Shown here one piece after another: positions 9,465-41,431 of a stretch of 64,000 bases of DNA. Location of the stretch: NCBI GenBank assembly GCA_004283055.1, contig SHLP01000006.1:5131-69130 (forward strand), in the 5' to 3' direction. Position 1 is the stretch's first letter. Each line of letters starts with the position of its first letter. Origin of the DNA: Deltaproteobacteria bacterium. Its GTDB lineage: Bacteria; Myxococcota_A; Polyangia; Polyangiales; Houyiibacteriaceae. The notes under the pieces were generated by a model. It saw only the letters and a program-made list of their open reading frames with translations. It was not told the DNA's origin and ran no database searches. Position numbers and translations under genes: made by a program.

Positions 9465-9478
9465 AAGAACGTGTTTCA
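9465..9478. promoter_or_regulatory. KstR-type operator candidate AAGAACGTGTTTCA
   Basis: Fits nnnAACnnGTTnnA. It is intergenic, 60 nt from the LLM start (9405) and 38 nt from the epimerase start (9516). Confidence 0.5.
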
Positions 9479-9515
9479 ATTTGAAGCGGGCGCTGCCGCA
9501 GGTCAGCCTGCCCCC

Positions 9516-10493
9516 ATGCGCGTGCTCGTCACTGGAGCCTTCGGGCGCCTTGGTCGCGAGGGCATGAACCGCCTCTTGCTCGAGGGGGATTCCGTGATCG
9601 CCTTCGACGTTCCGAACCGACGAAATCGAAGGCTCGCGAAGCGCTTCGCCGACCGAGCACGAATCGTCTGGGGCGATATCCGGTCCGCTGCTGACGTCGA
9701 CGCGGCCGTCGCGAGCTGCGACGCAATCATTCACAACGCCGGAGTCCTGGCGCCAGCCTCCGAGCTTCACCCCGAGCTCGCATACGCGGTCAACGTGGAA
9801 GGGACGAAGAACATCATCGCCGCGATCAGGCGCGAAAAGGCCCCACCCATCATCGTTTTCGCATCGTCACTGGCCGTCTGCGGCCCCCGCCTGCCCGGTG
9901 GTCCGCCACTCACCGGCGACCTCCCTGCCATTGCGACCGACAACTACACGTCGAACAAAGCGGAGTGCGAACGACTTCTCCGCGAGTCGGGCCTTCCGTA
10001 CGTCATCCTTCGAATCGGCGTGTCGGTGGGCCTACGGGCAGCCGCCGGTGATCTCTCGCCGGACGTTTTTCGCGTGCTCTTCAGCATCAACCCGGACACG
10101 CGTCTCGAATGGATTCATCCGGAGGATGTCGCCCTTGCGCAGATTCGAGCGATCAAGCGTCGAGGAGCACTTCGAAAGACATTGATGATTGGAGGCGGCG
10201 AAAGGTGCCGGCTCACATTCCGCGAATTCTACGGCGCAATGTTTGAAGCGACTGGGGTAGGGCGTTTTCCGCCCGAAGCGTATGGGAGCGGCGCGTACTA
10301 CTGCGATTGGCTGAACACCGACGAAAGCGAATCGCTATTGCACTACCAGCGCACGAGCTTCGATGAGTTCATCGCGCAAATGCGCAAGGAGTCACGACTC
10401 ACCCGGCCATTCGTTCGGATGCTCGCGCCGCTCATCCGCGCGTACATGCTGCGCTACTCGGATGCTTGGCAAAACAGGAGCAGGCGAGCCTAG
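9516..10493 (+). CDS. NAD(P)-dependent epimerase/dehydratase family protein (atypical SDR)
   Basis: The start was set at the internal ATG giving MRVLVTGAFGRLG (Rossmann motif). YTSNK catalytic motif. Confidence 0.7.
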   Translation: MRVLVTGAFGRLGREGMNRLLLEGDSVIAFDVPNRRNRRLAKRFADRARIVWGDIRSAADVDAAVASCDAIIHNAGVLAPASELHPELAYAVNVEGTKNIIAAIRREKAPPIIVFASSLAVCGPRLPGGPPLTGDLPAIATDNYTSNKAECERLLRESGLPYVILRIGVSVGLRAAAGDLSPDVFRVLFSINPDTRLEWIHPEDVALAQIRAIKRRGALRKTLMIGGGERCRLTFREFYGAMFEATGVGRFPPEAYGSGAYYCDWLNTDESESLLHYQRTSFDEFIAQMRKESRLTRPFVRMLAPLIRAYMLRYSDAWQNRSRRA

Positions 10494-10494
10494 G

Positions 10495-11277
10495 TCAAGC
10501 GCGCTGGCTCGATACTGAGAGCACCTCGCCGGTCATGTACGAGCTGTAGTCGCTGGCCAAGAAGACCATCACGTTTGAGATTTCCCACGGTTCGGCGCCT
10601 CGCCCGAACGCCTCGCGTTTCTGCAGGTCCTCTAATAGGCCCGGCGGAGTGACCTTTTCGAGGAATGGGTGCATCGCGAGCGATGGAGAAACACAGTTGA
10701 TGCGGACGTTGCGTTCAGCGGCCTCGATCGCCGCGCAGCGCGTCAGGGCCATGACGCCTGCTTTTGCAGCCGCGTAGTGCGATTGACCCTCTTGCGCACG
10801 CCAGCCGAGCACCGAAGCGTTGTTGACGATGGCGCCCTTGCCTCGCGGCATCATGTGCTTGAGCGCAGCCCGGGTGCAGCGAAAGCAGCCGTTGAGCGTC
10901 ACGTCCAGCACCACGTTCCACTGATCGTCGGTCATGTCGATGACCTTTGCGTAACCGCCGAGCCCGGCGTTGTTCATGAGGACGTCCACGTGCCCCATCT
11001 TGTCGACTGCGAGCTCGAACATCGTCTGCACTTCGTCTTCCTTGGTGACGTTGCAAAGGACGATTTCGGGGCGCACCCCCGTTTCAGCCTCGACTTTGTC
11101 GGCTGCCTCCCCGAGTCGCCGCTCGTGAATGTCGCTAATCACCAGCCCTGACGCCCCTTCTTCGGCGCAGCGAACGGCTGTCGCAAAGCCGATGCCCGTC
11201 CCCGCCGCGGCAGTGATGAGAACGTTCTTGCCTTTGAGCAGGCCGTGGCCGCCGACATACGTGGGTTTGCTGTTCAT
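10495..11277 (-). CDS. SDR family oxidoreductase
   Basis: 260 aa. TAAAGTGIG glycine motif and YAAAK catalytic motif. It is the last gene of the 16308-to-10495 operon. Confidence 0.8.
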   Translation of the reverse strand: MNSKPTYVGGHGLLKGKNVLITAAAGTGIGFATAVRCAEEGASGLVISDIHERRLGEAADKVEAETGVRPEIVLCNVTKEDEVQTMFELAVDKMGHVDVLMNNAGLGGYAKVIDMTDDQWNVVLDVTLNGCFRCTRAALKHMMPRGKGAIVNNASVLGWRAQEGQSHYAAAKAGVMALTRCAAIEAAERNVRINCVSPSLAMHPFLEKVTPPGLLEDLQKREAFGRGAEPWEISNVMVFLASDYSSYMTGEVLSVSSQRA

Positions 11278-12449
11278 CGCGGCTCCTTCGGCAGCCCGAG
11301 TCCTCGTTCGCCAATGATGTTTCGTTGGATCTGATTGGAACCCGCGTAGATCGTGTCAGCCCGTGAAAACAGGCACCACTTCTGCATGGCGGTAAGCTCA
11401 TACGGCGCCGCATCGAGCAGCTCGGCTTCCGGGCCGAGCACATCCATCGCGAGCTTGCCTAGGTCGCGATGCCAATTCGACCAGTAAAGCTTGCTGATCA
11501 GCGCTTCTCGGTTCAGATCCGCACCTTCGTGTTCCAGCATTCGAAGCGCGTTGACGCGCATGATTCTGAGGCCGATCGCGGCGTTCGCGATTCGCTGCCT
11601 GAGGATGGGGTCCTTTGCAGCTCCCGATTCTCGTGCGGCAGCGACGACCTGCTCGAATTCCTTCTGAAAGAGGTACTGCTGACCGAGCGTTGACGCTCCC
11701 CGCTCGAAGGCAAGCGTGCCCATGGCGACTTTCCACCCGTTGTTGACGCCGCCGACGAGATGATTCTTTTCTGCCTTGGCACCGTCGAAGAAAACCTCGG
11801 CGAACTCCGCGCTCCCGCTCATTTGTCGGATCGGGCGCACTTCGATGCCTTGCTGTTTCATCGGAACGAGAAGGCAGCTGATGCCGCGGTGCTTCGCGGC
11901 TTCTGGGTCGGTCCGGCAAAGAACGAAGCACCAGTCCGAGTACTGCGCACCCGAGGTCCAAATTTTTTGGCCCTCGATGATCCACTCGTCACCGACCAAT
12001 CTGGCTTTGGTCTGGACGTTGGCCAGGTCAGATCCCGCGCCGGGCTCCGAGTAGCCCTGACACCAAATTTCTTCGCCCGAGACAATCGGCGGTAGGAAAC
12101 GTTTCTGTTGCTCCGTCGAGCCAAAATGAATCAGGGTCGGTCCTAGAAGCGTCTCGCCGATGTGGCCAACGTTGCCCGGCCCGTTCGCGCGCACGTATTC
12201 CTCGTTGAACACCGCCTCTTCCTTGATCGAGCATCCGCGGCCGCCAAACGCCTTGGGCCAGCCAATGCAGTTCCAGCCAGCAGCGCCCATGACCCTGCCC
12301 CAGGCCACCCGCTCCTCGACGTAGCGGTCTTGGTCGCCGGAGGCGCCTCGGCCCTGCAGCTCTTTGAAGGGGCCATTGAGCTGCTCTTCCAACCAGGCGC
12401 GCGCCTCCTGACGGAACGCCTCTTCTTCGTCGCTTAGCTGTATCTCCAT
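11274..12449 (-). CDS. Acyl-CoA dehydrogenase family protein (C-terminal IYAGSNQIQRNII)
   Basis: The start was moved to the ATG at 12449, which forms a TGATG overlap with the upstream ACAD stop. N-terminus MEIQLSDEEEAFRQEARAWLEE. Confidence 0.85.
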   Translation of the reverse strand: MEIQLSDEEEAFRQEARAWLEEQLNGPFKELQGRGASGDQDRYVEERVAWGRVMGAAGWNCIGWPKAFGGRGCSIKEEAVFNEEYVRANGPGNVGHIGETLLGPTLIHFGSTEQQKRFLPPIVSGEEIWCQGYSEPGAGSDLANVQTKARLVGDEWIIEGQKIWTSGAQYSDWCFVLCRTDPEAAKHRGISCLLVPMKQQGIEVRPIRQMSGSAEFAEVFFDGAKAEKNHLVGGVNNGWKVAMGTLAFERGASTLGQQYLFQKEFEQVVAAARESGAAKDPILRQRIANAAIGLRIMRVNALRMLEHEGADLNREALISKLYWSNWHRDLGKLAMDVLGPEAELLDAAPYELTAMQKWCLFSRADTIYAGSNQIQRNIIGERGLGLPKEPR

Positions 12450-13594
12450 CACAAACCCATCTGCGCTGCGACTCGCTCGCGGTGAAAGGCGGGGCCCCCG
12501 AAGAGATTCTCGGTCGCCTTGGCTCGCTTGAAGTAAAGGTGTGCGGGGTGCTCCCAGGTGAAGCCAATCCCGCCGTGGATCTGAATCATTTCGGAGGCGC
12601 AGTGAAAGAAGGCATCTGAGCAATACGCCTTGGCGCTCGACGCCGCCTCCTCGAGGCTTTCGCCACCCTGCGTCGCCAGAGCACTCGCGTAGAACGCGGC
12701 GGATCGCGCCGACTCCACCAACGTCAGCATATCCGCACACTTGTGCTTGATCGCCTGGAACGAGCCGATCGGCCTTCCGAACTGCTTGCGCACCTTCGCG
12801 TACTCGACCGACATTTCAAGACACATCTCAGCGGCGCCCACTTGCTCCGCTGCGAGCGCAATTCGGGCGAGGTCCAGTGTCCTTTCGCAAAGCCACCAAC
12901 CTTTTCCTTCGTCGCCGAGCAGGGCGTCGTCGGGCACCGTCACTTCCAAGAGCTCGACGGATGCCATCCGCCGGGTCTGATCCATCGTTGGCAGCCACTT
13001 GCGTTTTAGCCCGTCCGCGTCCTTGGGCACCAGGAACAAGCTTACGCCATGGGGACCCGTGCCCGCGCTCCGCTCCGAGCGCGCTGCGACGATCAAGAGA
13101 TCGGCTGTGTGCCCGTCGAGCACGTAGCTCTTGGCGCCGCTGAGCAGGTAGCCGGCGCCGTTTCGTACGTAGCTCGCTTCGACACCGGCGGCGTCCATTC
13201 GGCCGTTCGTTTCTGCGAAGGCGAGAGTGGCCCGCGTTTCTCCGGCGGCAATGCCCGGGAGATAGAGCTCCTTCTGGGCTTCGCTCCCGCCGATCATGAG
13301 CGCATTGGCACCCAAACCAACGGTCGATAGAAACGGGGCGCAGAGCAGTGCGCGCCCGATCTCTTCCATCAACGGATGCAAGTCGAGGTAGCTCAGGCCG
13401 AGGCCGCCGTATTCCTCAGGAATGGTGAGCGCTGTCCACGCGAGCTCCTCCGAGAGCTGCGCCCAGGTTGCCGGGTCGTAGCCTCGCTCCGTTTCCATTG
13501 CGCTCCGAACACGAGCCTCAGAGGACGCCACCTCCAAGAAGCGTCGAGCGGCTCGTCTGAGCTCGTTCTGATCTTCCGAGAATGAAAACTCCAT
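12449..13594 (-). CDS. Acyl-CoA dehydrogenase family protein (partner subunit type)
   Basis: 381 aa. MEFSFSEDQNELRRAARRF...IHGGIGFTWEHPAHLYFKRA. Confidence 0.85.
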   Translation of the reverse strand: MEFSFSEDQNELRRAARRFLEVASSEARVRSAMETERGYDPATWAQLSEELAWTALTIPEEYGGLGLSYLDLHPLMEEIGRALLCAPFLSTVGLGANALMIGGSEAQKELYLPGIAAGETRATLAFAETNGRMDAAGVEASYVRNGAGYLLSGAKSYVLDGHTADLLIVAARSERSAGTGPHGVSLFLVPKDADGLKRKWLPTMDQTRRMASVELLEVTVPDDALLGDEGKGWWLCERTLDLARIALAAEQVGAAEMCLEMSVEYAKVRKQFGRPIGSFQAIKHKCADMLTLVESARSAAFYASALATQGGESLEEAASSAKAYCSDAFFHCASEMIQIHGGIGFTWEHPAHLYFKRAKATENLFGGPAFHRERVAAQMGL

Positions 13595-13598
13595 CCCC

Positions 13599-14381
13599 TC
13601 AGTCTCCTTGGTTCACGCTAGCGGCCGAAATGAAAGCGGGTGTTTCGCCGCCGCCATGAAGCACGAGATTCGCCCCGCTCACGTACGAGGCAAGAGGCGA
13701 GGCAAAAAACATGCACGCTCCTGCAACGTCGTCGGGCGTGCCGAGACGCTGTAGCGGCACGGTGCGTGCGACGCGCGCGATGCCATCCCCGTCGCCATAG
13801 TGAAGATGCGCCTGCTCGGTTCGAATCAGCCCCGCCGCGATCGAATTGACACGCACTTTGGGCGCCCATTCGATTGCAAGCGTCCCGGTCAGGTTGATCA
13901 GCCCGGCCTTGGCTGCGCCGTAAGCCGCTGTTCCGGGGGAAGGCCGCACCCCGGATACGCTGGCGATGTTGACGATCGAACCGCCTGACTCCTGAGCCTG
14001 CATGATGCGGTTCGCTTGCTGGGCGCAATGAAGGGCGGCGGTGAGGTTGAGCTGAATGATCTTTTCCGAGAACCGCGGAGAGGCCGTCGCTGCTTCCGCG
14101 AAGGGCGCGCCTCCGGCGTTGTTGACTAGCACGTCGAGCTGCCCGAGACGTTCGACGGTTTCGTCAACCATCTTTTCCACTTGTTTCGAATCCCGCACGT
14201 CGGCGCTCACGAACGATACTTTGTTGCCGCCAGCGCTTGGGAGCTCGTCGGGCTCGGTGCGCCCGCACACGGCGACCTTGGCGCCTGCTGCGAGGAACGC
14301 CTCAGCGATGCCCCGGCCAATTCCCCGGCTCCCGCCCGTGACCAGGATGGCTCTACCGACGAAGTCGAAGGGGTTGCTCAT
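13599..14381 (-). CDS. SDR family oxidoreductase
   Basis: 260 aa. VTGGSRGIG and YGAAK motifs. Confidence 0.8.
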   Translation of the reverse strand: MSNPFDFVGRAILVTGGSRGIGRGIAEAFLAAGAKVAVCGRTEPDELPSAGGNKVSFVSADVRDSKQVEKMVDETVERLGQLDVLVNNAGGAPFAEAATASPRFSEKIIQLNLTAALHCAQQANRIMQAQESGGSIVNIASVSGVRPSPGTAAYGAAKAGLINLTGTLAIEWAPKVRVNSIAAGLIRTEQAHLHYGDGDGIARVARTVPLQRLGTPDDVAGACMFFASPLASYVSGANLVLHGGGETPAFISAASVNQGD

Positions 14382-15289
14382 GTTCCGTACACTTTGACCG
14401 GTGGCTGCGCCTTGGATAGAAGCTCATCGACCGCCGTTCCCAGCGCGCCCGCATCCCATCGCTTGCTGATGGTCATCGTCTGCTCACGCCGGTAGCCGTC
14501 GAAGACTGTGACCGTGCCGCCAAAGACCTCCCAGACGCGCCCCGTGACGTCGCGCGACTGCGAGCTTGCAAGCCAGGCGACGAAGGGCGAGACATTGGCT
14601 GGGTCGTTCTCGTCGAAACCCTCGTCGGGCGCTTTCATGGCATCGCCGAACGCGCCTTCGGTCATTCGGGTCCGCGCAATCGGGCAAATTGCGTTCGCCG
14701 TGATGCCGTATCGACCGAGCTCGGCGGCCTGCACGAGAGTCAGCGTTGCGATGCCCGCCTTCGCCGCAGAGTAACTCGACTGACCGACGCTCCCGAGGAC
14801 TCCGGCGCCCGAGCTGGTATTGATGATACGCGCATCGACCTGCTCCCCGGCTTTGACGAGCCCTCTCCAATACGCAGCAGCGTGCCGAGACACACAAAAG
14901 TGCCCCTTGAGGTGAACCCGGATCACCGCATCCCATTCCTCTTCGCTACAGCTCACGAACATGCGGTCCCGGACGAAGCCTGCGTTGTTGACCACTGCAT
15001 CGAGTCGTCCGAACTCGTCGATGGCTTGCCGGACGAGCTCCTTGGTCTGTGCCCAATCCGCGACGTCCGCCCCGTTGGCCACGGCCTCTCCGCCCGAGTC
15101 GCGAATCGTCTGAACGACTTCGTCCGCCGGCCCGTGACCGCCGCCCTCGCCGCTGTTGCTCACGCCGAGGTCGTTCACCACGACTTTCGCGCCTTGTCGC
15201 GCGAGCTCGAGCGCATGCTCACGGCCGATGCCGCGACCTCCGCCGGTTACGATTACTACCCGTCCATCACAAATGCCAGTCATTCTCAA
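14378..15289 (-). CDS. SDR oxidoreductase, MFE-2/Hsd4A-like (3R)-hydroxyacyl-CoA dehydrogenase type
   Basis: 303 aa. VIVTGGGRGIGREHALELARQGAKVVVNDLG and YSAAK motifs. 4-nt overlaps on both sides. Confidence 0.7.
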   Translation of the reverse strand: MRMTGICDGRVVIVTGGGRGIGREHALELARQGAKVVVNDLGVSNSGEGGGHGPADEVVQTIRDSGGEAVANGADVADWAQTKELVRQAIDEFGRLDAVVNNAGFVRDRMFVSCSEEEWDAVIRVHLKGHFCVSRHAAAYWRGLVKAGEQVDARIINTSSGAGVLGSVGQSSYSAAKAGIATLTLVQAAELGRYGITANAICPIARTRMTEGAFGDAMKAPDEGFDENDPANVSPFVAWLASSQSRDVTGRVWEVFGGTVTVFDGYRREQTMTISKRWDAGALGTAVDELLSKAQPPVKVYGT

Positions 15290-16308
15290 ACCTCTGCGTC
15301 GGCCAGCTTGACCAACAGTTTCCCCCGATGTTCACCGCTGAACAGCCGAAGCAGATGAGCTGGAGCCTCGTCCAGACCTTCGACGATTTCATCGCGATAG
15401 CGAATCCTGCCCTCGCGGATCCATCGCGCGAGATCTGCCCGTGCCTCGTCGTATCGGGAAGCGAAATCCAAGGTAGTGAAGCCCTCCATGCGGGCGCTCT
15501 TCGCCAGGAGCCGGAGATAGTTGCTTGGTCCGGGTGGAAGCTTCGCATCGTTGATCTGTGAGATCGCGCCGCAAACCACCACCCGGCCGTGGTGGTTGAG
15601 ACGGGTCAGCGCCGTGTTGAGTATCTCCCCGCCGACGCTGTCGAAGAATACGTCGATGCCGTCTGGGCAGGCCTCATCCATGGCGGGGCGCAGGTTTGTC
15701 GTCTTGTAGTTGATTGCGGCATCGTAACCGAGCTCGTCGGTTAGCCAGGAGCACTTCTCATCGCTGCCCGTCAGTCCGACGGCCCGACACCCCTCGAGCT
15801 TTGCGATCTGGCCGACGATCGAGCCGACCCCACCTGCGGCGGCAGACACCAGCACGGTTTCGCCTTTTGTTGGTTTCCCGACCGCGAGCAAACCAAAGTA
15901 TGCTGTCAGCCCGGTTCCACCGAGGACGCTCAACATCGTAGAGAGGGGGATCCCCTCGATCGTCCTCACATTGCCGTGAAGCATTCGAGAGGAGACGACG
16001 CTGTACGATTCCCAGGCGGCTAACGCCTGCACGACTTGCCCAACCGACCAGCCCTCCGCTTTGGACTCAATGATCTCGGAGAGGGCTCCGCTCCGAATCG
16101 GCTCGCCGATCCCGATCGGAGGCAGGTACGATTTCGCCTCACTCATCCAGCCGCGTATCGCGGGGTCGATCGAAAGGTACAGGTTCTTGAGCAAGACCTC
16201 CCCGGCCGCGGGTACGCCTAGCGGAGCCTCCGCCTCCTCGAAATCCCCAATCGCCGGCACCCCAACCGGTCGCTTCCTCAACAAAATCTGCCGATTAACC
16301 TCCAACAC
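15286..16308 (-). CDS. NADP-dependent medium-chain reductase (YncB/alkenal double-bond reductase type)
   Basis: 340 aa with a GTG start. LYLSIDPAIRGWM and AAAGGVGSIVGQIAK motifs. Confidence 0.8.
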   Translation of the reverse strand: MLEVNRQILLRKRPVGVPAIGDFEEAEAPLGVPAAGEVLLKNLYLSIDPAIRGWMSEAKSYLPPIGIGEPIRSGALSEIIESKAEGWSVGQVVQALAAWESYSVVSSRMLHGNVRTIEGIPLSTMLSVLGGTGLTAYFGLLAVGKPTKGETVLVSAAAGGVGSIVGQIAKLEGCRAVGLTGSDEKCSWLTDELGYDAAINYKTTNLRPAMDEACPDGIDVFFDSVGGEILNTALTRLNHHGRVVVCGAISQINDAKLPPGPSNYLRLLAKSARMEGFTTLDFASRYDEARADLARWIREGRIRYRDEIVEGLDEAPAHLLRLFSGEHRGKLLVKLADAEV

Positions 16309-16320: not shown

Positions 16321-16334
16321 TGAAACATGTTTCA
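16321..16334. promoter_or_regulatory. KstR-type operator candidate TGAAACATGTTTCA
   Basis: A 14-bp inverted repeat whose arms TGAAAC/GTTTCA are perfectly complementary around a non-palindromic central AT. It lies 13 nt upstream of the start codon at 16308. Confidence 0.6.
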
Positions 16335-16344
16335 CTTTCTGCAA

Positions 16345-16486
16345 GGGGACACGCTCCCTCTCTAAAACCTGCATGGTTCCCGATGCTTCGGACGCACAGC
16401 GCGAAAACCCGCTCGGACCTGGGTTTTCGCGGTGCGGGCCTTAAGTCCTTGAAAACGTGAGATTATTTGGGGTGGAGCGTGTCCCC
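16345..16486. repeat. REPIN-like element: two inverted ~66-nt REP units (GGGGACACGCTCC ... GCAC.CCGCGAAAACCC)
   Basis: The termini GGGGACACGCTCC (16345-16357) and GGAGCGTGTCCCC (16474-16486) are perfect inverted repeats. An internal hairpin is CGCGAAAACCC/GGGTTTTCGCG. The same unit occurs at 48614, 49342 and 50100-50162. Confidence 0.8.
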
Positions 16487-17451
16487 TAATTCCAGGTGAT
16501 GCCGCGCTGGTAGAGGACGGCGAGGTCCATGGTGAGGGCGATGGACCAGTGGAGGAGGGCGCCTAGGAAGAAGGAGCGGTGCCGGAGCGCGAGGTAGCCG
16601 AGGACGAACCCAGCGAGGATCGAGGCGTTCACCTCGAGGATCGGTTTTCCGTAGTGGCCGATGCTGTACATCATCACCATCCAGGGAAGGGCGCTCACGT
16701 CGAGGTCTCGGCCGAGGCCGAAGGTCATGAAGCCACGCCAAAAGCTCTCGCCCGAGAGAAAGACCATGAAGTAGGCGACCTGGTAGAGGATGAACAAGCG
16801 GATCGATGCCTCGGTGCCGCTGACGATGCCGCGGGTTTGTGGGTAGCTCGCTTGGAACTCGGGCAGGGCCGATGCCCACAAGACCAGCGGGACCATCACG
16901 ACGAAAAGGCCAAGATAGACCCAGCGCATCCGCGTCCCCCCGCGCACGACGTAGCCGTACTCGGCAGGCCGCTGTCGGAGTCTGAAGCGGAGGAGCAGGT
17001 ACGGAACTGCGAGCCGTAGCACTACGCTGCAGGTCGCGAAATACGCAAACCCGAACAACGGAGTTCGCACCCCTACCGGGACAAATCGCTCGAAAAGCAG
17101 TCGGTACGTATTGGAACGACCGAACGCCAAAAAAAGGATGAGCAGGAGCATCGAGCTGATCACGACGAACCGGGCTTCATGAGAAACGTCCGAGAAGCGA
17201 ATGCCCGTGAGCAAGCGAAGTAGACCGAAGTAGAACAGGCTGCCGGCAACGATGTAGAGCGCGATCGAGCTCGGCATCTGCCGCCCCCAGACGTGCCAGC
17301 TCCAGTTCAACGGCAGAAGCACAGCAACCGAAGCGGCCGCTACGCACCAGAATTGCCGGGTTCCAATCTCGATTCTTGCGTGGTCCAAGCGTTCGGCCAG
17401 CTCAGCCAAGCCGTTCGATGACCGCGGCCATGCCCTGGCCGCCGCCAACAC
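16486..17451 (-). CDS. Polytopic membrane protein, possibly CPBP (CAAX protease/Abi) family
   Basis: 321 aa and very hydrophobic. It has weak CPBP-like motifs (GESFWRG, YSIGH, HWSIALTMD). The annotated start overlaps the thiolase gene by 50 nt, so the true start is uncertain. Confidence 0.45.
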   Translation of the reverse strand: MLAAARAWPRSSNGLAELAERLDHARIEIGTRQFWCVAAASVAVLLPLNWSWHVWGRQMPSSIALYIVAGSLFYFGLLRLLTGIRFSDVSHEARFVVISSMLLLILFLAFGRSNTYRLLFERFVPVGVRTPLFGFAYFATCSVVLRLAVPYLLLRFRLRQRPAEYGYVVRGGTRMRWVYLGLFVVMVPLVLWASALPEFQASYPQTRGIVSGTEASIRLFILYQVAYFMVFLSGESFWRGFMTFGLGRDLDVSALPWMVMMYSIGHYGKPILEVNASILAGFVLGYLALRHRSFFLGALLHWSIALTMDLAVLYQRGITWN

Positions 17452-18622: not shown

Positions 18623-18625
18623 GGC

Positions 18626-20323: not shown

Positions 20324-20337
20324 GGACGTGCCCTGCC

Positions 20338-20742: not shown

Positions 20743-20769
20743 GCTCAGTTTAGTCAGCCTCGAACGGCC

Positions 20770-23769: not shown

Positions 23770-23798
23770 GCGCGCTCTCGTCGGCTTGACCGGCGGAC

Positions 23799-27612: not shown

Positions 27613-27621
27613 GCCGCAGCA

Positions 27622-28782: not shown

Positions 28783-28786
28783 AATC

Positions 28787-29800: not shown

Positions 29801-29867
29801 GCTCGGGGACCAGCCCCTTGCGGGGCAGTTCCAACCCCTCTAAAACCACCGTAATAGTGAGGATCAA

Positions 29868-31562: not shown

Positions 31563-31606
31563 CGGCTCCGATAGCCAGGCGGCTTGACGCGGAGCCTCGG
31601 GCAAAA

Positions 31607-31620
31607 TAGAACACGTTTCA
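31607..31620. promoter_or_regulatory. KstR-type operator candidate TAGAACACGTTTCA
   Basis: About 40 nt upstream of the scp2 ATG. GGCTTGAC (31581-31588) lies 18 nt upstream, so the site would overlap a -10 position. Confidence 0.6.
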
Positions 31621-31997: not shown

Positions 31998-32024
31998 TCG
32001 GCTAGGGCGCAACGGGACAAGACC

Positions 32025-33988: not shown

Positions 33989-35136
33989 TGGCCGAGCCAT
34001 GTGCCGTCATCGGGATTGGCCAGACCAAGCATCGCGAGAGCCGTCGCGACCTGTCGATTCCGGGCTTGGTCCGCGACGCGGCGATCCGCGCATTGCAAGA
34101 CGCAGACATGACCTGGAAGGACATCGACTCCATCGTGATCGGAACCGCTCCAGACATGTTCGAGGGCGTCATGATGCCGGAGCTTTGGTTGTCAGACGCA
34201 CTCGGCGCAGCCGGAAAGCCGATTCTACGGGTTCACACCGCGGGCTCGGTCGGTGGCTCCACGGCCGTGGTAGCCGCGCATCTCGTTCAAGGCGGCGTTC
34301 ATGAGAAAGTTCTCACTCTGGCGTTCGAGAAGCAGAGCGAGTCCAACGCCATGTGGGCGCTCTCACCGGCGATTCCTTTCCAACCGCAGCTCGTTGCTGG
34401 TGCCGGCGGCTACTTTGCACCGCTCATCCGTTCGTACATCCGCCGAGCCGATGCGCACCCCGATACGGGTTGCGTGGTCGCCGTGAAGGACCGTCAACAC
34501 GGCTTGCTCAATCCGAACGCACACCTCCACCTCGACCAGACCCTAGAGCAGGTGAAAGCGTCGCCGATGCTATGGGACCCGATTCGCTACTCGGAGACTT
34601 GCCCTTCCTCGGACGGGGCGGTGGCGATGGTACTCGTGAGCGCGAAGCATGCAGGACGGGTCAGCAACCCAGCCTGGGTGAAGGGCACCTCGGTCCGGAC
34701 CGAACGCACGTTCTTTGCGGGCCGCGATCAGGTGAACCCCGCAGCCGGCAAGCTTTGCGCCAAGGACGTGTACGACGAGGCCGGCATCAGCAACCCGCTC
34801 CAAGAGATCGACTGCGCCGAGGTCTATGTTCCGTTTTCTTGGTTCGAACCGATGTGGCTCGAGAATCTGGGCTTTGCCGAAGAAGGCGAGGGCTGGAAAA
34901 TGACGATGGAGGGCAAAACCAAACTAGGTGGGGAGATGCCATGGAACATGTCCGGCGGCGTCATGTGTACCAATCCGATCGGGGCCAGCGGCATGCTTCG
35001 ATTCGCGGAGGCTGCGCGCCAGGTGCGTGGGACGGCGGAACGGCACCAGGTCGACGGTGCGAAGGTCGCCGTCGGTCACGCCTACGGAGGCGGTTCACAG
35101 TTCTTCGCGATGTGGGTCGTTGGCTCGGAGCGCTGA
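33988..35136 (+). CDS. SCP-x type thiolase-like lipid-transfer protein lacking the nucleophilic cysteine (Ltp-like)
   Basis: The start at ATG 33988 forms a TAATG overlap. MAEPCAVIGIGQTKH. At the expected nucleophile position it reads VHTAGSVGG. Confidence 0.75.
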   Translation: MAEPCAVIGIGQTKHRESRRDLSIPGLVRDAAIRALQDADMTWKDIDSIVIGTAPDMFEGVMMPELWLSDALGAAGKPILRVHTAGSVGGSTAVVAAHLVQGGVHEKVLTLAFEKQSESNAMWALSPAIPFQPQLVAGAGGYFAPLIRSYIRRADAHPDTGCVVAVKDRQHGLLNPNAHLHLDQTLEQVKASPMLWDPIRYSETCPSSDGAVAMVLVSAKHAGRVSNPAWVKGTSVRTERTFFAGRDQVNPAAGKLCAKDVYDEAGISNPLQEIDCAEVYVPFSWFEPMWLENLGFAEEGEGWKMTMEGKTKLGGEMPWNMSGGVMCTNPIGASGMLRFAEAARQVRGTAERHQVDGAKVAVGHAYGGGSQFFAMWVVGSER

Positions 35137-35148
35137 GCGGGAGGCACG

Positions 35149-36753
35149 ATGGAATATAACCTTGCAGACCTCTACGAGGCGATTGCGGACGCGGTGCCGG
35201 ACAACGTGGCCCTTGCCTCGGGCGACGTTCACCGCAGCTACGCTGAGCTGGACAAGCGGGCGAACCGTTTGGCCCACTACTTCAGTTCGCGCGGTATTGG
35301 TCCAGGCGACCACGTCGGGCTGCATCTCTTCAATGGACACGAGTTCGTCGAAGCGATTCTGGCGCTCTTCAAGATTCGGGCCGTCGGGATCAACATGAAC
35401 TACAGGTTCGTGGGACCCGAGGTACGGTACATGATCGAGAACGCCGACCTAGTCGGGATCATTACCCAGCGACGTTTTCTGCCGGTCATCAACGAGGCGA
35501 TGGAAGGTCGCGAGCCGCTGAGGGCGCTCATCGTGATCGAAGATGGTGCCGACGCCGGCACCGATCATGAGTTCATCGAGTACGAGGCCGCGCTCGCGCA
35601 GGGCTCCGAAGAGCGTGGTTTTGGGACTAGGTCCGGAAAAGACCTCTACATCATCTACACCGGTGGGACGACGGGGATGCCGAAGGGAGTCATGTGGCAG
35701 CATGAGGACCTGTTCTTTACCGGCCTTCAAGGCGGGTCCCCTGGAGGCGATCCCGTCGATTCGCCGGAGCAGCTCATCGAACAAGTCAAAGAGGGCTGGT
35801 ACACGGTCACGATGCTCCCCTGCGCACCGTTCATTCACGGCGCTGCGCAGTGGACCCAGTGGATATGCCACACCACCGGCGGGAAGCTCGTGCTTCAGGA
35901 CGGCCCGAGCTTCGACGCGAAGCGCATTCTATCTCTCATTGCCGAGGAGGAAGTTTCGACCATTTCGCTCGTAGGTGATGCGATGGCCATCCCCCTCATC
36001 GAGGAGCTGCGCCAAGGCGACTACGACGTGTCGAACCTGGCCGTCATTGCATCCGCGGGTGCGATTCTTTCGGCAAGCATCCAGAACGAGCTCGAAGCAC
36101 TCCTGCCCGACGTGATGATCATCAACAGCTTCGGGACGAGCGAATCGGGCGACCTCGGCCGAGCGGCAGGCGATGAGGAAAGCCACGAGAATCGCCCCTC
36201 CTTTTACATGGGTGACGAGGTCACCGTGCTGGACGAGAACGGCGAGCAGATCGAGCCGGGGTCTGGGACGGTTGGTCTGGTAGCCCGCTCGGGCCGACTG
36301 CCCATCGGCTATTACAAGGACCCCGAAAAGACCGCGGAGCGCTTCAAAGAGTTCAAAGGCAAGCGCTGGGTCGTTCCCGGGGACTTCGCCACTATCGAAG
36401 AAGACGGGCGCATCACCTTTCTCGGCCGGGGCAGCAAGTGCATCAACACGGGCGGCGAGAAGGTCTTCCCTGAGGAAGTGGAAGAAGCCTTGAAGGCGCA
36501 TCCGGACGTCATCGATGCGCTCGTCGTGGCCGTTCCCGACCCTCGCTTCGGATCCAAGGTTGCTGCGGTCTTCAATACCCGCGGCAATCAACGGCTCTCC
36601 CTCGAAGACATACAGCAGCATTGCCGCAAACACATCGCCGGGTACAAGGTCCCCCGACAGATCACGATCACAGAAACGGTTTCCCGCATGCCGAGTGGAA
36701 AACCCGACTACAAGTGGGCGGAGGAAATCGCCCGAAGTCACGCGAGCGCCTAG
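35149..36753 (+). CDS. Acyl-CoA synthetase (FadD19-like steroid/medium-chain CoA ligase type)
   Basis: 534 aa. The N-terminal pattern LADLYEAIADAVPDNVALASGD...ELDKRANRLAHYF and YTGGTTGMPKGV match this family. Confidence 0.85.
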   Translation: MEYNLADLYEAIADAVPDNVALASGDVHRSYAELDKRANRLAHYFSSRGIGPGDHVGLHLFNGHEFVEAILALFKIRAVGINMNYRFVGPEVRYMIENADLVGIITQRRFLPVINEAMEGREPLRALIVIEDGADAGTDHEFIEYEAALAQGSEERGFGTRSGKDLYIIYTGGTTGMPKGVMWQHEDLFFTGLQGGSPGGDPVDSPEQLIEQVKEGWYTVTMLPCAPFIHGAAQWTQWICHTTGGKLVLQDGPSFDAKRILSLIAEEEVSTISLVGDAMAIPLIEELRQGDYDVSNLAVIASAGAILSASIQNELEALLPDVMIINSFGTSESGDLGRAAGDEESHENRPSFYMGDEVTVLDENGEQIEPGSGTVGLVARSGRLPIGYYKDPEKTAERFKEFKGKRWVVPGDFATIEEDGRITFLGRGSKCINTGGEKVFPEEVEEALKAHPDVIDALVVAVPDPRFGSKVAAVFNTRGNQRLSLEDIQQHCRKHIAGYKVPRQITITETVSRMPSGKPDYKWAEEIARSHASA

Positions 36754-36787
36754 ACCGGAGCAATCGAGTCAAGTCAGCCGAGGAAGC

Positions 36788-37759
36788 ATGTCAGTAGCAC
36801 AGCAAGAAGAGGAGCTCTTTCCGGGCTATCCGCGTGGCTGGTTCGTGATCGGCGTGTCGGCCGAGCTCGCCGTCGGGGACGTGCGGCCGATCAGGTACTT
36901 CGGCCGGGAAATGGTTCTGTATCGCGCCCAAAGTGGCGCGCCTATCGTGCACGATGCGTTCTGTCCTCACCTAGGAGCACACCTCGGCCACGGCGGCAAA
37001 GTGGTCGGCGAAACGATTCAGTGCCCTTTTCACGCCTGGCGCTTCGATGAAACCGGTAAGTGTGTGGACGTCCCGTACGCCAAACGGATTCCCCCGCGCG
37101 CCTGCGTGAAGAACCGGCCGGTCCAGGAGCACAACGGTTTGATCTTCATGTGGAACGCGAGCGCCGAAGACGAAAAGCCGACATGGGAGATCCCCGACAT
37201 CCCGGAGTATGGAAGCGAAGGCTGGACCGATTGGGGGTCGGCCTTGATCGACATCAAGACGCATCCAAAGGAGATCGTCGAGAATCTGGCAGACAAGGGG
37301 CACTTTGGTCCGGTGCATGGCACCTGGGCCAACGAGTTTGGCAATGAGTTCAAAGGACACATCGGCATTCAGCGCGTAAAGGGGGTCGCGTACCCACGCG
37401 GAGGCGGTGAAGATCACTTCGAGCTCCAGTCGACGTACTACGGGCCAGGTTACATGCTCACCGAGATGCAGAGCGTGCTGCCCAACATCATGCTCTTGTG
37501 CCACACGCCGGTCGACCAGAGCCGGGTTCACGTTCGAATCGGCGCAATGATCGACATCTCGAACGTAAAAGAGGGCAAAGGGAAGTTTCTGGAAGGGTAC
37601 CGCGAAAACATCATCGTCGGCTTCAAGGAAGACATCGCAATCTGGGAGAATAAAAAATACCGAGCGCGACCGATTCTCTGCGATGGTGACGGCGATGTAG
37701 GAGCCCTGCGGCGCTGGTACCAGAAGTTCTACATGCCTCAGGCAGAGGTTGGATATTAG
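36788..37759 (+). CDS. Rieske [2Fe-2S] oxygenase, KshA-like (3-ketosteroid 9-alpha-monooxygenase oxygenase family)
   Basis: The start was set at ATG 36788. Rieske motif CPHLGAHLG...CPFHAWRF. Mononuclear iron motif DKGHFGPVH. C-terminal LRRWYQKFY. 323 aa, shorter than KshA as I recall it. Confidence 0.7.
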   Translation: MSVAQQEEELFPGYPRGWFVIGVSAELAVGDVRPIRYFGREMVLYRAQSGAPIVHDAFCPHLGAHLGHGGKVVGETIQCPFHAWRFDETGKCVDVPYAKRIPPRACVKNRPVQEHNGLIFMWNASAEDEKPTWEIPDIPEYGSEGWTDWGSALIDIKTHPKEIVENLADKGHFGPVHGTWANEFGNEFKGHIGIQRVKGVAYPRGGGEDHFELQSTYYGPGYMLTEMQSVLPNIMLLCHTPVDQSRVHVRIGAMIDISNVKEGKGKFLEGYRENIIVGFKEDIAIWENKKYRARPILCDGDGDVGALRRWYQKFYMPQAEVGY

Positions 37760-37761
37760 CC

Positions 37762-38340
37762 ATGGATGATCGAGCCAAGCGTATCGTTGAAACAGCCGTC
37801 GCACTTGCGGAGCGAGACGGATACCAGGCGGTTCGCCTGCGGGACGTTGCGGCCAGTGCCCAAGTTGCGCTGGGCACCGTCTATAAGCGCTTTGCCAGCA
37901 AAGAAGAGATCCTGATTGCCGCCCTCGAGCAGGAGAGCGAAAAGCTCGTGGCCAAGATTGGCAGAAAGCCCGTTCCCGGCGACGGCCCCCGGGAACGCGT
38001 GCACTTCGTCTTTTCGGCGCTCACCAAGGGGCTCTTGCGGCGACCCAATCTCGCAAAAGCGCTGGTCCGGTCTCTCGCTTCAGGTGACCCGAACATCACG
38101 GAGCGAGTAGCAAGCTTTCATGCGCTCATCACAGCAATGGTCATGGCTGCAATTCGCGGTGAGGCCGCATCAGAGCAGGCAGAATGGGGTGGGGACGTCG
38201 ACGAACGCGAGCGCACGATTGCGTCGATTCTGCAAAACGTTTGGTTTGCTTCGTTCGTTGGCTGGGCCGGCGGCTTGCACGAGGCGTCGCAGCTTCTCCT
38301 GGACATCGACAAGACGACCGAGCTCCTCTTGGCGGATTAG
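37762..38340 (+). CDS. TetR/AcrR family transcriptional regulator (KstR-like candidate)
   Basis: 192 aa. The N-terminal HTH is GYQAVRLRDVAASAQVALGTVYKRFASKEEIL. It starts 2 nt after the kshA-like stop. Confidence 0.85.
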   Translation: MDDRAKRIVETAVALAERDGYQAVRLRDVAASAQVALGTVYKRFASKEEILIAALEQESEKLVAKIGRKPVPGDGPRERVHFVFSALTKGLLRRPNLAKALVRSLASGDPNITERVASFHALITAMVMAAIRGEAASEQAEWGGDVDERERTIASILQNVWFASFVGWAGGLHEASQLLLDIDKTTELLLAD

Positions 38341-38377: not shown

Positions 38378-40483
38378 GTGCTTCCTTGCCCGAAGGGCTG
38401 CGAGAACGCACTGGCGCAGGAAGTCAAAGACCTGGATATCGAGGTTGCGGACGTGCGCCCGACCGCGGTGCACGTTTCGGCGAGCTTGAAGGAGGGCTAT
38501 CGTCTTTGCCTGTGGTCGCGGGTGGCCTCACGTGTTCTGCTTCCGCTTCTCGAGCTCGACGCCGACGATGATACGGCGCTCTATGAGGCCCTGCGAGCGG
38601 TTCCCTGGTGGGAGCATTTCGACGCGAAGCAGACCTTTGCCATTGGCACCTCACAGGCCCCGAAGAGCGCATTCCCCTCGCACTACTGGGTGCAACGCGC
38701 GAAAGACGCGATTGTCGATACCTTTCGCGATCATGGAGGCGCGCGTCCGAGCATCGATAAGAAAGCGCCGGCGATTCGGCTGCACCTGCACATCGGCGAA
38801 CGCCAGCACGAGCTTGCTCTCGATTTCTCGGGGGAGGCCTTGCACCGGCGTGGCTACCGCAGAGCGGGAGGGAAGGCGCCCCTCAAAGAAAACCTGGCCG
38901 CCGCGATTCTCTACGTCGCCGGATGGCCCGAGGCCGCCCGGCAAGGGCTTTCCCTCATGGACCCCACCTGCGGCTCCGGTACATTTCTGATCGAAGGGGC
39001 CCTCATGGCGACCAACGTTGCTCCGGGGCTCCTGCGCGAGCGTTTCGGCTTCGAGCACTGGCGCAAGCACGATGCTTTGGCATTCAGAGCCGAGCGAGAT
39101 GCGGCGCGGATGGCTCGACGGGCTTCGTGTCCGGCTCGAATCTTCGGCTGCGACGCATCCGAGCAGGCGCTGGCTTATGCCCGGGAGAACCTCGCCGCGG
39201 CAGGTGTCGAACAGCACGTATCGCTAACGCTCAAAGAGCTCACCGAGATCCAAAGACCGACCGACGCGGGCATTTTGGTCTGCAATCCACCGTACGGTCA
39301 CCGCTTGGGCGACGAGGGGACTCTCTTTTTGTTTTACCAGTCGCTCGGAGATGCTCTCAAGCGAGCTTTCGACGGATGGACCGCCTACGTGTTTGCCGCT
39401 CATGGAGGCAACCTCAAGCACCTCGGCCTCCGGCCTTCGCGCCGGCACGTTCTCTATAACGGTGCAATCGAATGTCGCTTGGTGGAGATCCCCGTGAGGG
39501 GAGCGACGGCTGGCGAATCTGCCAAGCCACCCGCCTGGAGAAAGCCGAGCGACAAAGCGTCGATGTTCGCCAACCGAATACGGAAGAACAAGAAGAAATG
39601 GGGACGCTGGGCGAAGCGCAACGGAGTCGAATGCTACCGGATCTACGATGCCGACATCCCCGAATACCACGTCGCGGTCGACCTCTACGGCCCCAGGGCC
39701 GTGGTGCACATCTTCCAGAAGGAACGAGACGCAGACGATGATCGGGCCAAGCAGCGGGTGCAGGATGTCCTTCTGACGCTTCCCGAGGCACTAGCGATCG
39801 ACCCCGGCGACCTCGTGGTGAAGGTCCGACGCAAGCACGAGCAAGGCGACCAGTACGCCCGCATCTCCCAAGGGGACAGCGACATGGTCGTGAGCGAAGG
39901 CGAGCTTCGCTTCGTAGTCAACGTGGAGGACCGAATCGATACAGGCCTATTTCTCGATCACCGGACCGTTCGCGCCTACGCGCACGAGCGCTGCGAGGGC
40001 AAGCGCATGCTCAATCTCTTTGCGTACACCTGCTCGGTGAGCGTGGCGGCGGCGGTGGGTGGAGCCAAGCAAACCAGCAGCGTCGACCTGTCCAACACCT
40101 ACTTGGACTGGGGAAAAAAGAACTTCGAAGCCAACGGCGTCGACCCCGCGATGCACCGATTCATTCGCGACGATGCTACCCGCTGGATCGCCCGCGACCG
40201 CAACAGCTACGACTGGATATTCATCAATCCGCCTACGTTCTCGCGCTCCAAGATGAGCAAACGCGCTTTCAACATCCACAAAGACCACAAGAGCTTGCTC
40301 GGCGACGCCATGAGCTCCCTCGACACCAAGGGAGAGCTGCTCTTCACGACCCACGCGCGGGCCTTCGAACTAGACGAAGCGATCAGAAAGCGCTTCCGAG
40401 TCGAGGACGCGACCAAGGAATTCGTGCCGCCCGACTTCGTGAGGTATCCGTTCCAGGCGTTTCGTATCAGGCGTCGAGCTTGA
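38378..40483 (+). CDS. rlmL: Bifunctional 23S rRNA (guanine-N2/guanine-N7) methyltransferase RlmKL
   Basis: 701 aa with a GTG start. The N-terminus is THUMP-like (LWSRVASRVLLPL). Motif VCNPPYGHRLG. A second SAM methyltransferase domain is in the C-terminal half. Confidence 0.85.
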   Translation: MLPCPKGCENALAQEVKDLDIEVADVRPTAVHVSASLKEGYRLCLWSRVASRVLLPLLELDADDDTALYEALRAVPWWEHFDAKQTFAIGTSQAPKSAFPSHYWVQRAKDAIVDTFRDHGGARPSIDKKAPAIRLHLHIGERQHELALDFSGEALHRRGYRRAGGKAPLKENLAAAILYVAGWPEAARQGLSLMDPTCGSGTFLIEGALMATNVAPGLLRERFGFEHWRKHDALAFRAERDAARMARRASCPARIFGCDASEQALAYARENLAAAGVEQHVSLTLKELTEIQRPTDAGILVCNPPYGHRLGDEGTLFLFYQSLGDALKRAFDGWTAYVFAAHGGNLKHLGLRPSRRHVLYNGAIECRLVEIPVRGATAGESAKPPAWRKPSDKASMFANRIRKNKKKWGRWAKRNGVECYRIYDADIPEYHVAVDLYGPRAVVHIFQKERDADDDRAKQRVQDVLLTLPEALAIDPGDLVVKVRRKHEQGDQYARISQGDSDMVVSEGELRFVVNVEDRIDTGLFLDHRTVRAYAHERCEGKRMLNLFAYTCSVSVAAAVGGAKQTSSVDLSNTYLDWGKKNFEANGVDPAMHRFIRDDATRWIARDRNSYDWIFINPPTFSRSKMSKRAFNIHKDHKSLLGDAMSSLDTKGELLFTTHARAFELDEAIRKRFRVEDATKEFVPPDFVRYPFQAFRIRRRA

Positions 40484-41339
40484 ACACGCGCACCGCGTTG
40501 TCGCGAAGGAACTTCGGCCAGACCTCGTCTTTGAAGGGCACCTTCTGCATTTCAGTGAAGATGCGCTCGAGTGAGAGCCCCATCGGGAAATAGCCGGCGT
40601 ACATGATCTTGTCGGCGCCGCGGGTATTCGCGTAGTCGACGATCGCTTTCGGGTAGTGCTTCGGAGCGAACGCGCTCGTGCTGTAGTAGAGGTTGGGGTA
40701 CTTGAGCATGAGCTTGACCGCGAGGTCGACCCAGGGCTCGCCCCCGTGTCGCATCACGAATTTGAGCTCTGGGAAAAACCAGCACACCTCGTCGATGTGC
40801 TCGACCTTTTGCGGCGCCATCGGGATTCTCGGGCCGGGGACGCCCACGCAGAGGCAGATGGGAATGTCTAGGTCAACGCAGGTCGCGTAGATCGGATAGT
40901 ACTTCTTGTCGTTGAGCGGGACCTGTGGGCAGAGGCCCGAGGGAAAGCCCGTCACGGCTTTGAGGCCATGGTCCTTGTGGAGCTGCCGAATCTTGCGGAC
41001 CTCATCCATCCCGTTGTTTGGATTCGCGCCGTACGAGGGGAAAAAACGATCCGGCCGCTTCTGGCAGGCCTCGAGGTTCGCCGAGTTGGGTCCGGAAATG
41101 CCCAGCATGGCTTGCTCGACCCCCCATTTGTCCATTTGGCCAATGGCGTACTGGACATAGTCCTTCTGATCGCCGATCTCCGGGATATCCTTGAACATGT
41201 ACTGGGCCGGCATCTTGAAGGCCTTCCGGCTCTCCTCATCGAGCAGCAGCGGCTTGATGAACTCGTACCAGGCCGTCGGATCCCCGTCCGGGATGTTCAT
41301 CATCAGATCGATTGCTCTGAGACCGGTCGGTATCGGCAT
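40467..41339 (-). CDS. Amidohydrolase-2 family metal-dependent hydrolase/decarboxylase
   Basis: 290 aa with a TIM-barrel amidohydrolase pattern (MRHGGEPW, ADKIMYAGYFP). It overlaps the rlmKL 3' end convergently by 17 nt. Confidence 0.7.
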   Translation of the reverse strand: MPIPTGLRAIDLMMNIPDGDPTAWYEFIKPLLLDEESRKAFKMPAQYMFKDIPEIGDQKDYVQYAIGQMDKWGVEQAMLGISGPNSANLEACQKRPDRFFPSYGANPNNGMDEVRKIRQLHKDHGLKAVTGFPSGLCPQVPLNDKKYYPIYATCVDLDIPICLCVGVPGPRIPMAPQKVEHIDEVCWFFPELKFVMRHGGEPWVDLAVKLMLKYPNLYYSTSAFAPKHYPKAIVDYANTRGADKIMYAGYFPMGLSLERIFTEMQKVPFKDEVWPKFLRDNAVRVFKLDA

Positions 41340-41417
41340 GAAATAGCGTCCTTTCGGTGTCTCCCGCGGAGCCCTATGATGAAAAGCGGCCCACTGGACA
41401 TGTGCCCGCCCGTGGGC

Positions 41418-41431
41418 TAGAACACGTTCTA
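41418..41431. promoter_or_regulatory. KstR-type operator candidate TAGAACACGTTCTA (perfect palindrome)
   Basis: It lies in the divergent intergenic region between the amidohydrolase (start 41339) and the hsaA-like gene. Confidence 0.65.

Follow-up and report, generated by a model that had tools for sequence, protein, structure and literature searches.

KstR regulons have so far been described in mycolic-acid actinobacteria, and the locus analysed here raises the question whether a steroid regulon of this type also operates in an uncultured marine-sediment member of the Myxococcota (Polyangiales). The locus is a 64-kb stretch of DNA (64,000 nucleotides, contig SHLP01000006.1 of assembly GCA_004283055.1, Deltaproteobacteria bacterium; called the window below), which carries five 14-bp palindromes (operators A to E, Table 1) among genes for steroid catabolism, together with one gene for a regulator of the TetR family. 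In our analysis it is highly probable that these palindromes are operators for a dimer of the KstR-like TetR protein encoded at 37762-38340, with binding, repression and effector being predicted from the sequence.

The five sites had been listed in an earlier note on this DNA, and their sequences were confirmed at all five positions. The same note had equated their motif, TnnAACnnGTTnnA, with the KstR consensus, and this motif is indeed the KstR core published by Kendall 2007. To quantify its occurrence, exact matches were counted in the window, with 100 dinucleotide shuffles as control. Four exact matches compare with 0.34 expected by chance, and none of the 100 shuffles reached this number. 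The pattern count also bears out that four sites fit the consensus exactly, and that the fifth (9465) carries one mismatch at an outer position. The one-mismatch class was not enriched overall (9 matches, 9.5 expected), so the 9465 site needs support other than counting. An outer mismatch as such is no bar, as the M. tuberculosis sites at Rv3531c and Rv3570c are mismatched, yet experimentally positive (Kendall 2007).

Further support came from a scoring matrix whose only input was the 15 KstR sites that Kendall 2007 lists for M. tuberculosis; nothing from the window entered it. Applied to the window, this matrix placed the five sites on ranks 1 to 5 (24.4 down to 16.8 bits, Table 1), followed by a match of 9.9 bits on rank 6. 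The genuine M. tuberculosis KstR sites reach 17.2-24.4 bits under the same matrix, and 16.8 bits were reached in 0 of 30 random 64-kb Markov sequences. With two arms of 6 nt and a centre of 2 nt the palindromes are too short for a hairpin, and such a 6-2-6 dyad is typical of a dimeric TetR operator. Non-coding DNA makes up a few percent of the window if realistic start codons are used; with these start codons all five sites lie inside it, and the intergenic location that had been claimed for them holds. The sequences flanking the five sites bear no relation to one another.

For comparison we used related DNA comprising about 120 loci (1.66 Mb), i.e. 45 loci anchored on the TetR gene (753 kb) and 78 loci anchored on the CasG-like ligase (906 kb). 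The TetR-anchored set resulted from a scan of one genome per GTDB species, with TetR relatives at 45-98% identity, and its loci are mostly labelled as uncultured Myxococcota metagenome-assembled genomes (MAGs), e.g. Myxococcales bacterium SG8_38. The exact motif occurs 66 times in the TetR-anchored and 69 times in the ligase-anchored loci. Nearly all of these matches coincide with an orthologue of one of the five sites or immediately precede a TetR gene; the strays, about four, do not exceed the chance expectation. Operators A, B, C and D are phylogenetically footprinted (Table 1), with a 2-nt centre varying freely among the relatives.

The motif still adjoins the TetR gene or its operon where TetR identity has dropped to 45-63% (L041, L042, L043, L045, L047). 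At 62-63% identity the site heads the SCP2...TetR operon in L041 and L043, and is found next to the amidohydrolase gene in L042. In the more distant loci L045 (56%) and L047 (45%), the site precedes the start codon of the TetR gene by 8-9 nt; L045 also has adjacent KshA paralogues. That regulator and motif travel together is the strongest available evidence that this TetR, rather than another factor, would read the motif and autoregulate. The autoregulation proposed in the earlier note accordingly finds support in operator placement, namely in the 31607 site heading the TetR operon and in the sites of L045 and L047. Tandem sites were seen before the SCP2 operon of two distant relatives: L043 carries two overlapping operators (ctAGAACAAGTACTAGAACACGTTCTAg, 4690-4718), and L041 an extra TAGAAC half-site 6 nt upstream of the site (3830-3858).

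A phmmer search with the 37762-38340 product against all six-frame open reading frames (ORFs) of the window revealed no second TetR. The best PDB sequence match of the protein in phmmer was M. tuberculosis KstR (E 2e-23), aligned over residues 3-192 and thus over the full length, with 31% identity. KstR is also the best NCBIfam family, 26 orders of magnitude ahead of the next one (E 1.7e-36 vs 1e-10). In the AlphaFold (AF2) model (predicted local distance difference test, pLDDT, 86), the top 15 PDB matches obtained with Foldseek were all KstR (template modelling score, TM, 0.72-0.80), followed by a TetR of RHA1 and the acyl-CoA-binding FadR and FasR. The domains PF00440 (TetR_N helix-turn-helix, HTH) and PF17925 (TetR_C_20) were found in the protein and its homologues. 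KstR2 chains match over residues 4-86 only (the HTH, E 2.8e-4), not over the full length. The identical protein is encoded on contigs of the MAG assemblies GCA_013043065.1, GCA_018679225.1 and GCA_013042225.1, and homologues with 61-96% identity are labelled as Polyangiales, Myxococcales or Myxococcota MAGs. By sequence and model the protein can be called KstR-like and would work like KstR, but it is not a certified KstR orthologue.

Several observations weigh against the assignment of all five palindromes to this protein and to one regulon. The NCBIfam KstR model NF033703 yields 125.5 bits with the TetR, far below its equivalog cutoff of 280. A strict sigma-70 consensus scan called no promoter at any of the five sites. 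In front of the FadD3 block, no match to the M. tuberculosis matrix was detected in 23159-23287. The right arm of operator E has decayed among the relatives, reading GTGCTT, GCTCTT or GTTCTC, and this site fits the strict consensus in 3 of the 12 relatives of the conservation set. Finally, a terminator-shaped hairpin flanked by an A-run and a T-run (9412-9438, AAAAAAGGGGACAGTCCCCTTTTT) lies between operator E and the start of the LLM gene.

The position of the TetR below the equivalog cutoff might indicate that the sites are real, but owned by a regulator encoded outside the window, e.g. a closer KstR orthologue or a TetR of the PsrA/FadR type, with the 37762 TetR binding elsewhere. The Pseudomonas PsrA is an acyl-CoA-responsive TetR repressor, and three of the sites read TGAAAC-NN-GTTTCA, resembling the GAAAC/GTTTC-type operators of fatty-acid TetRs. 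We consider this explanation unlikely. Motif and TetR stay adjacent over 45-98% protein identity, including the cases in which the site lies immediately before the TetR start, KstR is by far the best match both in sequence and in fold, and the sites score within the range of genuine M. tuberculosis KstR sites. The acyl-CoA-responsive TetRs (Thermus and Bacillus FadR, M. tuberculosis FasR) are the next-best structural neighbours after KstR. They are dimers released or modulated by CoA thioesters, and the likeness of their half-sites to those in the window is superficial. Their sequence similarity to the window TetR is much weaker (Bacillus-type FadR model, E 1e-10, 41.8 bits, cutoff 200) and their regulons consist of fatty-acid genes, not of steroid genes. 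The regulon genes in the window are steroid-specific as well as generic for beta-oxidation.

Since the strict sigma-70 scan called no promoter at the sites (the window contained fewer promoter-like matches than shuffles), all promoter assignments were drawn from cross-species conservation. The promoter hexamers (Table 1) are at least 90% conserved across the relatives and stand at fixed spacing, with varying spacer sequences. At promoter C the -35-like hexamer is kept in all relatives. The relatives of promoter D share the pattern cTTGCA.AAAg[operator]gTCTa, and its mRNA may start with a very short leader or with none, given the 12-nt gap between operator and GTG 16308. Operator B starts 1 nt downstream of the CATAAA -10 hexamer of the divergent amidohydrolase promoter, whose hexamers (TTTATG and TGTAAA on the plus strand) are at least 90% conserved (n=24). 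For promoter E on the minus strand, conservation suggests the order CTGACC, N16, TCAAAT and then the operator. The operator would thereby act as the -10 hexamer itself at 31607 and at 41418 rightward, lie inside the spacer between -35 and -10 at 23799 and 16321, and directly follow the -10 at 41418 leftward and probably at 9465 leftward.

The hsaA 5' region (41432-41464) and its orthologues are unusually conserved (TTTATGGcC ... cTGTAAAGCggtGA). This is explained as the overlapping divergent amidohydrolase promoter; alternatively, it might be an RNA element in the hsaA leader. Two small conserved ORFs are located immediately upstream of operators: a PilZ-like one of 122 aa before operator A (31165-31533, weak PF07238 match) and one of 160 aa without a family match before operator C (23287-23769).

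Given that promoter-like regions overlap all the sites, with the left arm falling on the -10 position at two of them, the palindromes could also be promoter or activator elements, i.e. the site of a positive regulator or an unusual sigma-factor element. To this we assign very little probability. The offset of the operator from the conserved -35 differs by 10 nt between promoters (N17 vs N7), and a fixed element would stay put; the shift indicates a separate protein site rather than a part of the promoter. Moreover, TetR dimers typically bind dyads whose 2-nt centre is variable, and repression through the identical motif is proven in mycobacteria (Kendall 2007). That the palindromes occur by chance or form a dispersed repeat of the repetitive extragenic palindromic (REP) type can practically be dismissed: the one-mismatch class lacks enrichment, but the excess of exact matches, the fifth-site score attained by no random sequence, the mutually unrelated flanks and the conservation at orthologous positions in dozens of species all speak against it.

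Table 1. Operators, putative promoter elements and transcription units in the window. Bits refer to the matrix derived from M. tuberculosis KstR sites; conservation is given as operator vs flanks, followed by the number of distinct sequences.
Feature	Position	Strand	Description	Spacing to start codon	Conservation
Operator A	31607-31620		TAGAACACGTTTCA; exact; 21.4 bits; heads the operon from SCP2 to the KstR-like TetR	41 nt to ATG 31662 (+)	0.96 vs 0.65; 24
Operator B	41418-41431		TAGAACACGTTCTA, perfect palindrome; exact; 24.4 bits (top); common to the divergent hsaA operon and amidohydrolase gene	33 nt to ATG 41465 (+); 78 nt to ATG 41339 (-)	0.95 vs 0.75; 24
Operator C	23799-23812		TGAAACGCGTTTCA; exact; 17.3 bits; heads the echA20-ipdA-ipdB-ipdC-fadE-fadE-thiolase (ring C/D) operon	28 nt to GTG 23841 (+)	0.99 vs 0.78; 34
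Operator D	16321-16334		TGAAACATGTTTCA; exact; 19.3 bits; heads the minus-strand operon 16308->10495	12 nt to GTG 16308 (-)	0.99 vs 0.58; 26
Operator E	9465-9478		AAGAACGTGTTTCA (minus strand TGAAACACGTTCTT); one outer mismatch; 16.8 bits; between the SDR gene (+) and the LLM-F420 operon (-)	37 nt to ATG 9516 (+); 65 nt to ATG 9399 (-)	0.87 vs 0.76; 12
-35-like hexamer, promoter A	31584-31589	+	TTGACG, N17, operator left arm TAGAAC at -10 position; putative
-35-like hexamer, hsaA promoter (B rightward)	41395-41400	+	TGGACA, N17, operator left arm TAGAAC; putative
Amidohydrolase promoter (B leftward)	41433-41461	-	TTTACA (41461-41456), N17, CATAAA (41438-41433); putative
-35-like hexamer, promoter C	23786-23791	+	TTGACC, N7, operator fills spacer and overlaps -10 position (TTCACT); putative
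-35-like hexamer, promoter D	16339-16344	-	TTGCAG, N4, operator in spacer, then conserved gTCTAa; putative
KstR-like TetR	37762-38340	+	192 aa; only TetR in the window
Operon A	31662-38340	+	SCP2, ChsH2-type OB-fold protein, two Ltp-type thiolase-like proteins, acyl-CoA synthetase, KshA-like Rieske oxygenase, TetR
RlmKL	38378-40483		fused rRNA methyltransferase, housekeeping; between TetR and amidohydrolase gene; 37 nt after TetR
Amidohydrolase gene	40467-41339	-	Amidohydrolase_2, PF04909; divergent from hsaA across operator B
Operon B	41465-48614	+	HsaA-like oxygenase, HsaE-, HsaG- and HsaF-like meta-cleavage enzymes, two acyl-CoA dehydrogenases, SDR
Operon C (ring C/D)	23841-31022	+	EchA20-type hydratase, IpdA/IpdB CoA-transferase, IpdC-like NMO/FabK-type reductase, two acyl-CoA dehydrogenases, thiolase
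FadD3 block	16486-23158	-	FadD3, SDR, hypothetical protein, CasG-like steroid-24-oyl-CoA ligase, thiolase, CPBP membrane protein
Operon D	10495-16308	-	CurA-like NADPH reductase, two SDRs, two acyl-CoA dehydrogenases, SDR
SDR gene	9516-10493	+	NAD-dependent epimerase / 3beta-HSD-family SDR; NCBIfam SDR and epimerase matches; start 37 nt downstream of operator E
LLM-F420 operon	5355-9399	-	LLM (8356-9399), fno (7692-8348), cofE (6880-7695), cofD (5948-6883), cofC (5355-5951)

Given that the operators overlap putative core promoters, a bound KstR-like repressor would block RNA polymerase, i.e. repression would be of a simple steric kind, as has been proposed for KstR in mycobacteria (Kendall 2007). 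Five to seven transcription units would be shut off in this way. The predicted targets are side-chain and ring A/B catabolism, ring C/D catabolism, the operon of reductase, SDR and acyl-CoA dehydrogenase genes, and the amidohydrolase gene; a less secure target is the operon of the Rv3520c-type F420 oxidoreductase, which also makes F420. With the repressor gene inside a repressed operon, the circuit would be autoregulated. The repressor is most likely released by a steroid-CoA thioester produced by the co-encoded acyl-CoA synthetases, an assumption made by analogy with KstR and with the other acyl-CoA-binding TetRs nearest to it in structure, and judging from gene content the predicted regulon would respond to steroids.

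The genes of operon A are tightly packed (gaps of 27, -1, -4, 12, 34 and 2 nt), and its synteny is retained down to 62% TetR identity. The two Ltp-type proteins match PRK07937 (501 bits, cutoff 419) and PRK08313 (632 bits, cutoff 514), the acyl-CoA synthetase PRK07798 (686 bits, cutoff 543). The TetR gene had been described as the last gene of this operon. Its membership stands, but its terminal position is less clear, as RlmKL follows closely and a terminator scan detected no terminator between the two genes, nor any inside the operons. RlmKL, which L037 lacks at this position, may be transcribed together with the steroid operon.

The genes of operon A were assigned by Pfam and NCBIfam matches, and Pfam matches also underlie operons B and C. 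Operon B has gene gaps of 5, 14, -4, 4, -4 and 28 nt; its oxygenase reaches 408 bits with the HsaA model, below the 450-bit cutoff. The adjacency of the amidohydrolase gene and operator B is kept in L037 and L042. In operon C the gene gaps are 12, -4, -4, 9, 4 and 67 nt, and the EchA20-type hydratase exceeds the cutoff of PRK07938 (385 bits, cutoff 260). The gene order of operon D is the same in L130-L133.

In actinobacteria, a second regulator, KstR2 (Rv3557c), controls echA20, ipdAB, ipdC, fadE genes, fadA6 and fadD3, i.e. the degradation of rings C and D (methylhexahydroindanedione propionate, HIP). These target genes are present in similar operons in the window, yet neither an exact KstR2 motif nor a second TetR was found there, and the one TetR resembles KstR2 over the HTH only. 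The search of the window for the KstR2-type motif AnCAAGnnCTTGnT gave no exact match. Matches with one mismatch were more frequent than expected (6 vs 1.2, at 29967, 38805, 40286, 42107, 49925 and 63021). All six are situated in coding DNA, none of them upstream of echA20 or fadD3, and their excess is probably a codon or composition effect. The site carried by the ring C/D operon is of the KstR type, not of the KstR2 type.

The FadD3 block is the gap in this arrangement. Its FadD3 exceeds the cutoff of the respective model (768 bits, cutoff 657), and the ligase stays below that of the CasG model (658 bits, cutoff 750). In sister lineages a KstR-like palindrome (TGCAACGAGTTGCA or GGCAACGGGTTCCA) is found about 45 nt before FadD3 (L067:7092, L068:7113; L071, L076). 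In the sub-lineage of the window a short hairpin, GAGGAATCCTC (about 23230-23242), has replaced this stretch, leaving the block without an operator here. The earlier proposal that most of the 9.5-48.6 kb region forms one regulon is borne out in so far as the five sites head catabolic operons, but not for the roughly 7 kb of the FadD3 block. The block ends with a CPBP-family membrane protease-like protein (16486-17451) with a weak match to the archaeomyxosortase MrtA (70.6 bits, cutoff 200), and a terminator-like hairpin follows this gene on the minus strand (about 16400-16430).

Operator E is the weakest of the five sites and evolutionarily labile. Its position is conserved, and the relatives all keep its left arm TGAAAC and the TCAAAT next to it; among further loci L131 has an exact site and L133 a degenerate one, and from L130 the site is deleted. 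The link to the F420 operon drawn in the earlier note is supported by the genes that the 9465 site faces, an LLM of the Rv3520c family followed by fno-cofE-cofD-cofC, and by Rv3520c being flanked by a KstR site in M. tuberculosis (Kendall 2007). The LLM is F420-dependent according to TIGR03559 (362 bits, above the cutoff of 335), and CofC, CofD and CofE were assigned by family-model matches. The genes of this operon are separated by 7, -4, -4 and -4 nt. They occur together in L130-L134, in the same order and orientation in L130-L133 and with an inverted fno in L134. Orthologues of the SDR encoded on the other side of operator E carry PF01073 (3Beta_HSD).

In L132, whose LLM is 80% identical, LLM-fno-cofE-cofD-cofC are fused behind ligase, thiolase, SDR and acyl-CoA dehydrogenase genes with at most 9 nt between genes. 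An exact TAGAACATGTTTCA lies 6 nt before the ligase gene of this locus, and neither a separate E site nor a 3beta-HSD-like gene is present. Since operator E is lost, exact or degenerate depending on the locus, and the operon of L132 lies under another exact site, the link between repressor and F420 operon recurs, though it is labile in evolution.

The 9412-9438 hairpin is conserved in relatives, and L058, L085 and L096 carry it in duplicate on either side of a GGGTTAACCC palindrome, which is missing from L130 despite its two hairpin copies. No Rfam family was detected in the leader between the 9465 site and the LLM gene, and its folding z-score is unremarkable (-0.77). The hairpin could attenuate transcription in the leader or insulate the divergent genes from each other.

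A full F420 gene set adjoins the steroid cluster at 2052-9399, consisting of cofG/cofH and an LLM gene on the plus strand and LLM-fno-cofE-cofD-cofC on the minus strand, a layout also found in L130, L131 and L133. In a Byssovorax sp. MAG (L134:8712-14210), LLM-cofE-cofD-cofC homologues are situated beside an ERG4/ERG24-type sterol reductase and two P450 genes. No KstR-type site was detected in this region, and the neighbourhood may point to sterol modification, rather than to catabolism, as the context of the F420 LLM.

The closest known system is KstR itself (Rv3574 / MSMEG_6042). The window has the same 14-bp core, with arms of the TAGAAC as well as the TGAAAC kind, the repressors share the fold as well as full-length similarity, and the promoter-overlapping operators and the autoregulation of KstR are paralleled by operator placement. 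In M. tuberculosis, KstR sites flank Rv3520c/Rv3521, Rv3515c, Rv3525c/Rv3526 and Rv3570c (Kendall 2007). The window sites precede a gene for an Rv3520c-family LLM, ltp-type genes, an operon with fadD and a kshA-like gene, and hsaA, i.e. a content for steroid side-chain and ring A/B degradation. Both regulons share hsaA, kshA, a fadD19-type ligase, ltp genes and the LLM, the gene names hsaA, kshA, fadD19 and ltp3/4 for the Rv numbers being those of the M. tuberculosis annotation.

In contrast to KstR, the window TetR is 31% identical only, falls below the equivalog cutoff and belongs to an uncultured member of the Myxococcota, not the Actinobacteria. Its gene is located inside a catabolic operon, whereas the KstR gene is divergent from fadE34. 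Furthermore, a KstR-type site in the window also heads the ring C/D operon, and F420 biosynthesis genes are attached. The mechanism is known from KstR; the differences lie in the phylum, the low identity, the embedded repressor gene, the KstR-type operator of the ring C/D operon and the attached F420 operon. The G+C content stays level at 0.58-0.64 across the window, and base composition thus gives no hint of a recent transfer.

In two broad surveys of steroid degraders, neither Deltaproteobacteria nor myxobacteria are mentioned. Our literature search on KstR or steroid breakdown among Myxococcota yielded no relevant paper, its coverage being incomplete and an earlier description possible. According to the sequence comparison, the KstR protein-operator pair would have kept its DNA specificity at 31% identity in another phylum. 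One 14-bp matrix would then serve as a predictor of steroid regulons for at least 45 species-level Myxococcota MAGs, which originate from marine and estuarine sediments among others, as judged from record names only. This would be of use for annotation and for the ecology of sterol turnover in sediments. The arrangement suggests a simpler design with one repressor, which also covers the ring C/D genes and the F420 cofactor operon.

In a wider sense it is possible, though we put this forward tentatively and with more doubt than confidence, that an actinobacterial-style steroid catabolon, comprising 9,10-seco genes, the KstR-operator pair and F420 genes for an Rv3520c-type oxidoreductase, has taken hold across a widespread clade of Myxococcota from marine sediments, in which a single repressor replaces the KstR/KstR2 tiers and gates the F420 supply. 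The locus would gain in interest if a single repressor and a shared acquisition of the F420 genes were borne out; on this reading, these Myxococcota would be unrecognised sterol degraders in sediments.

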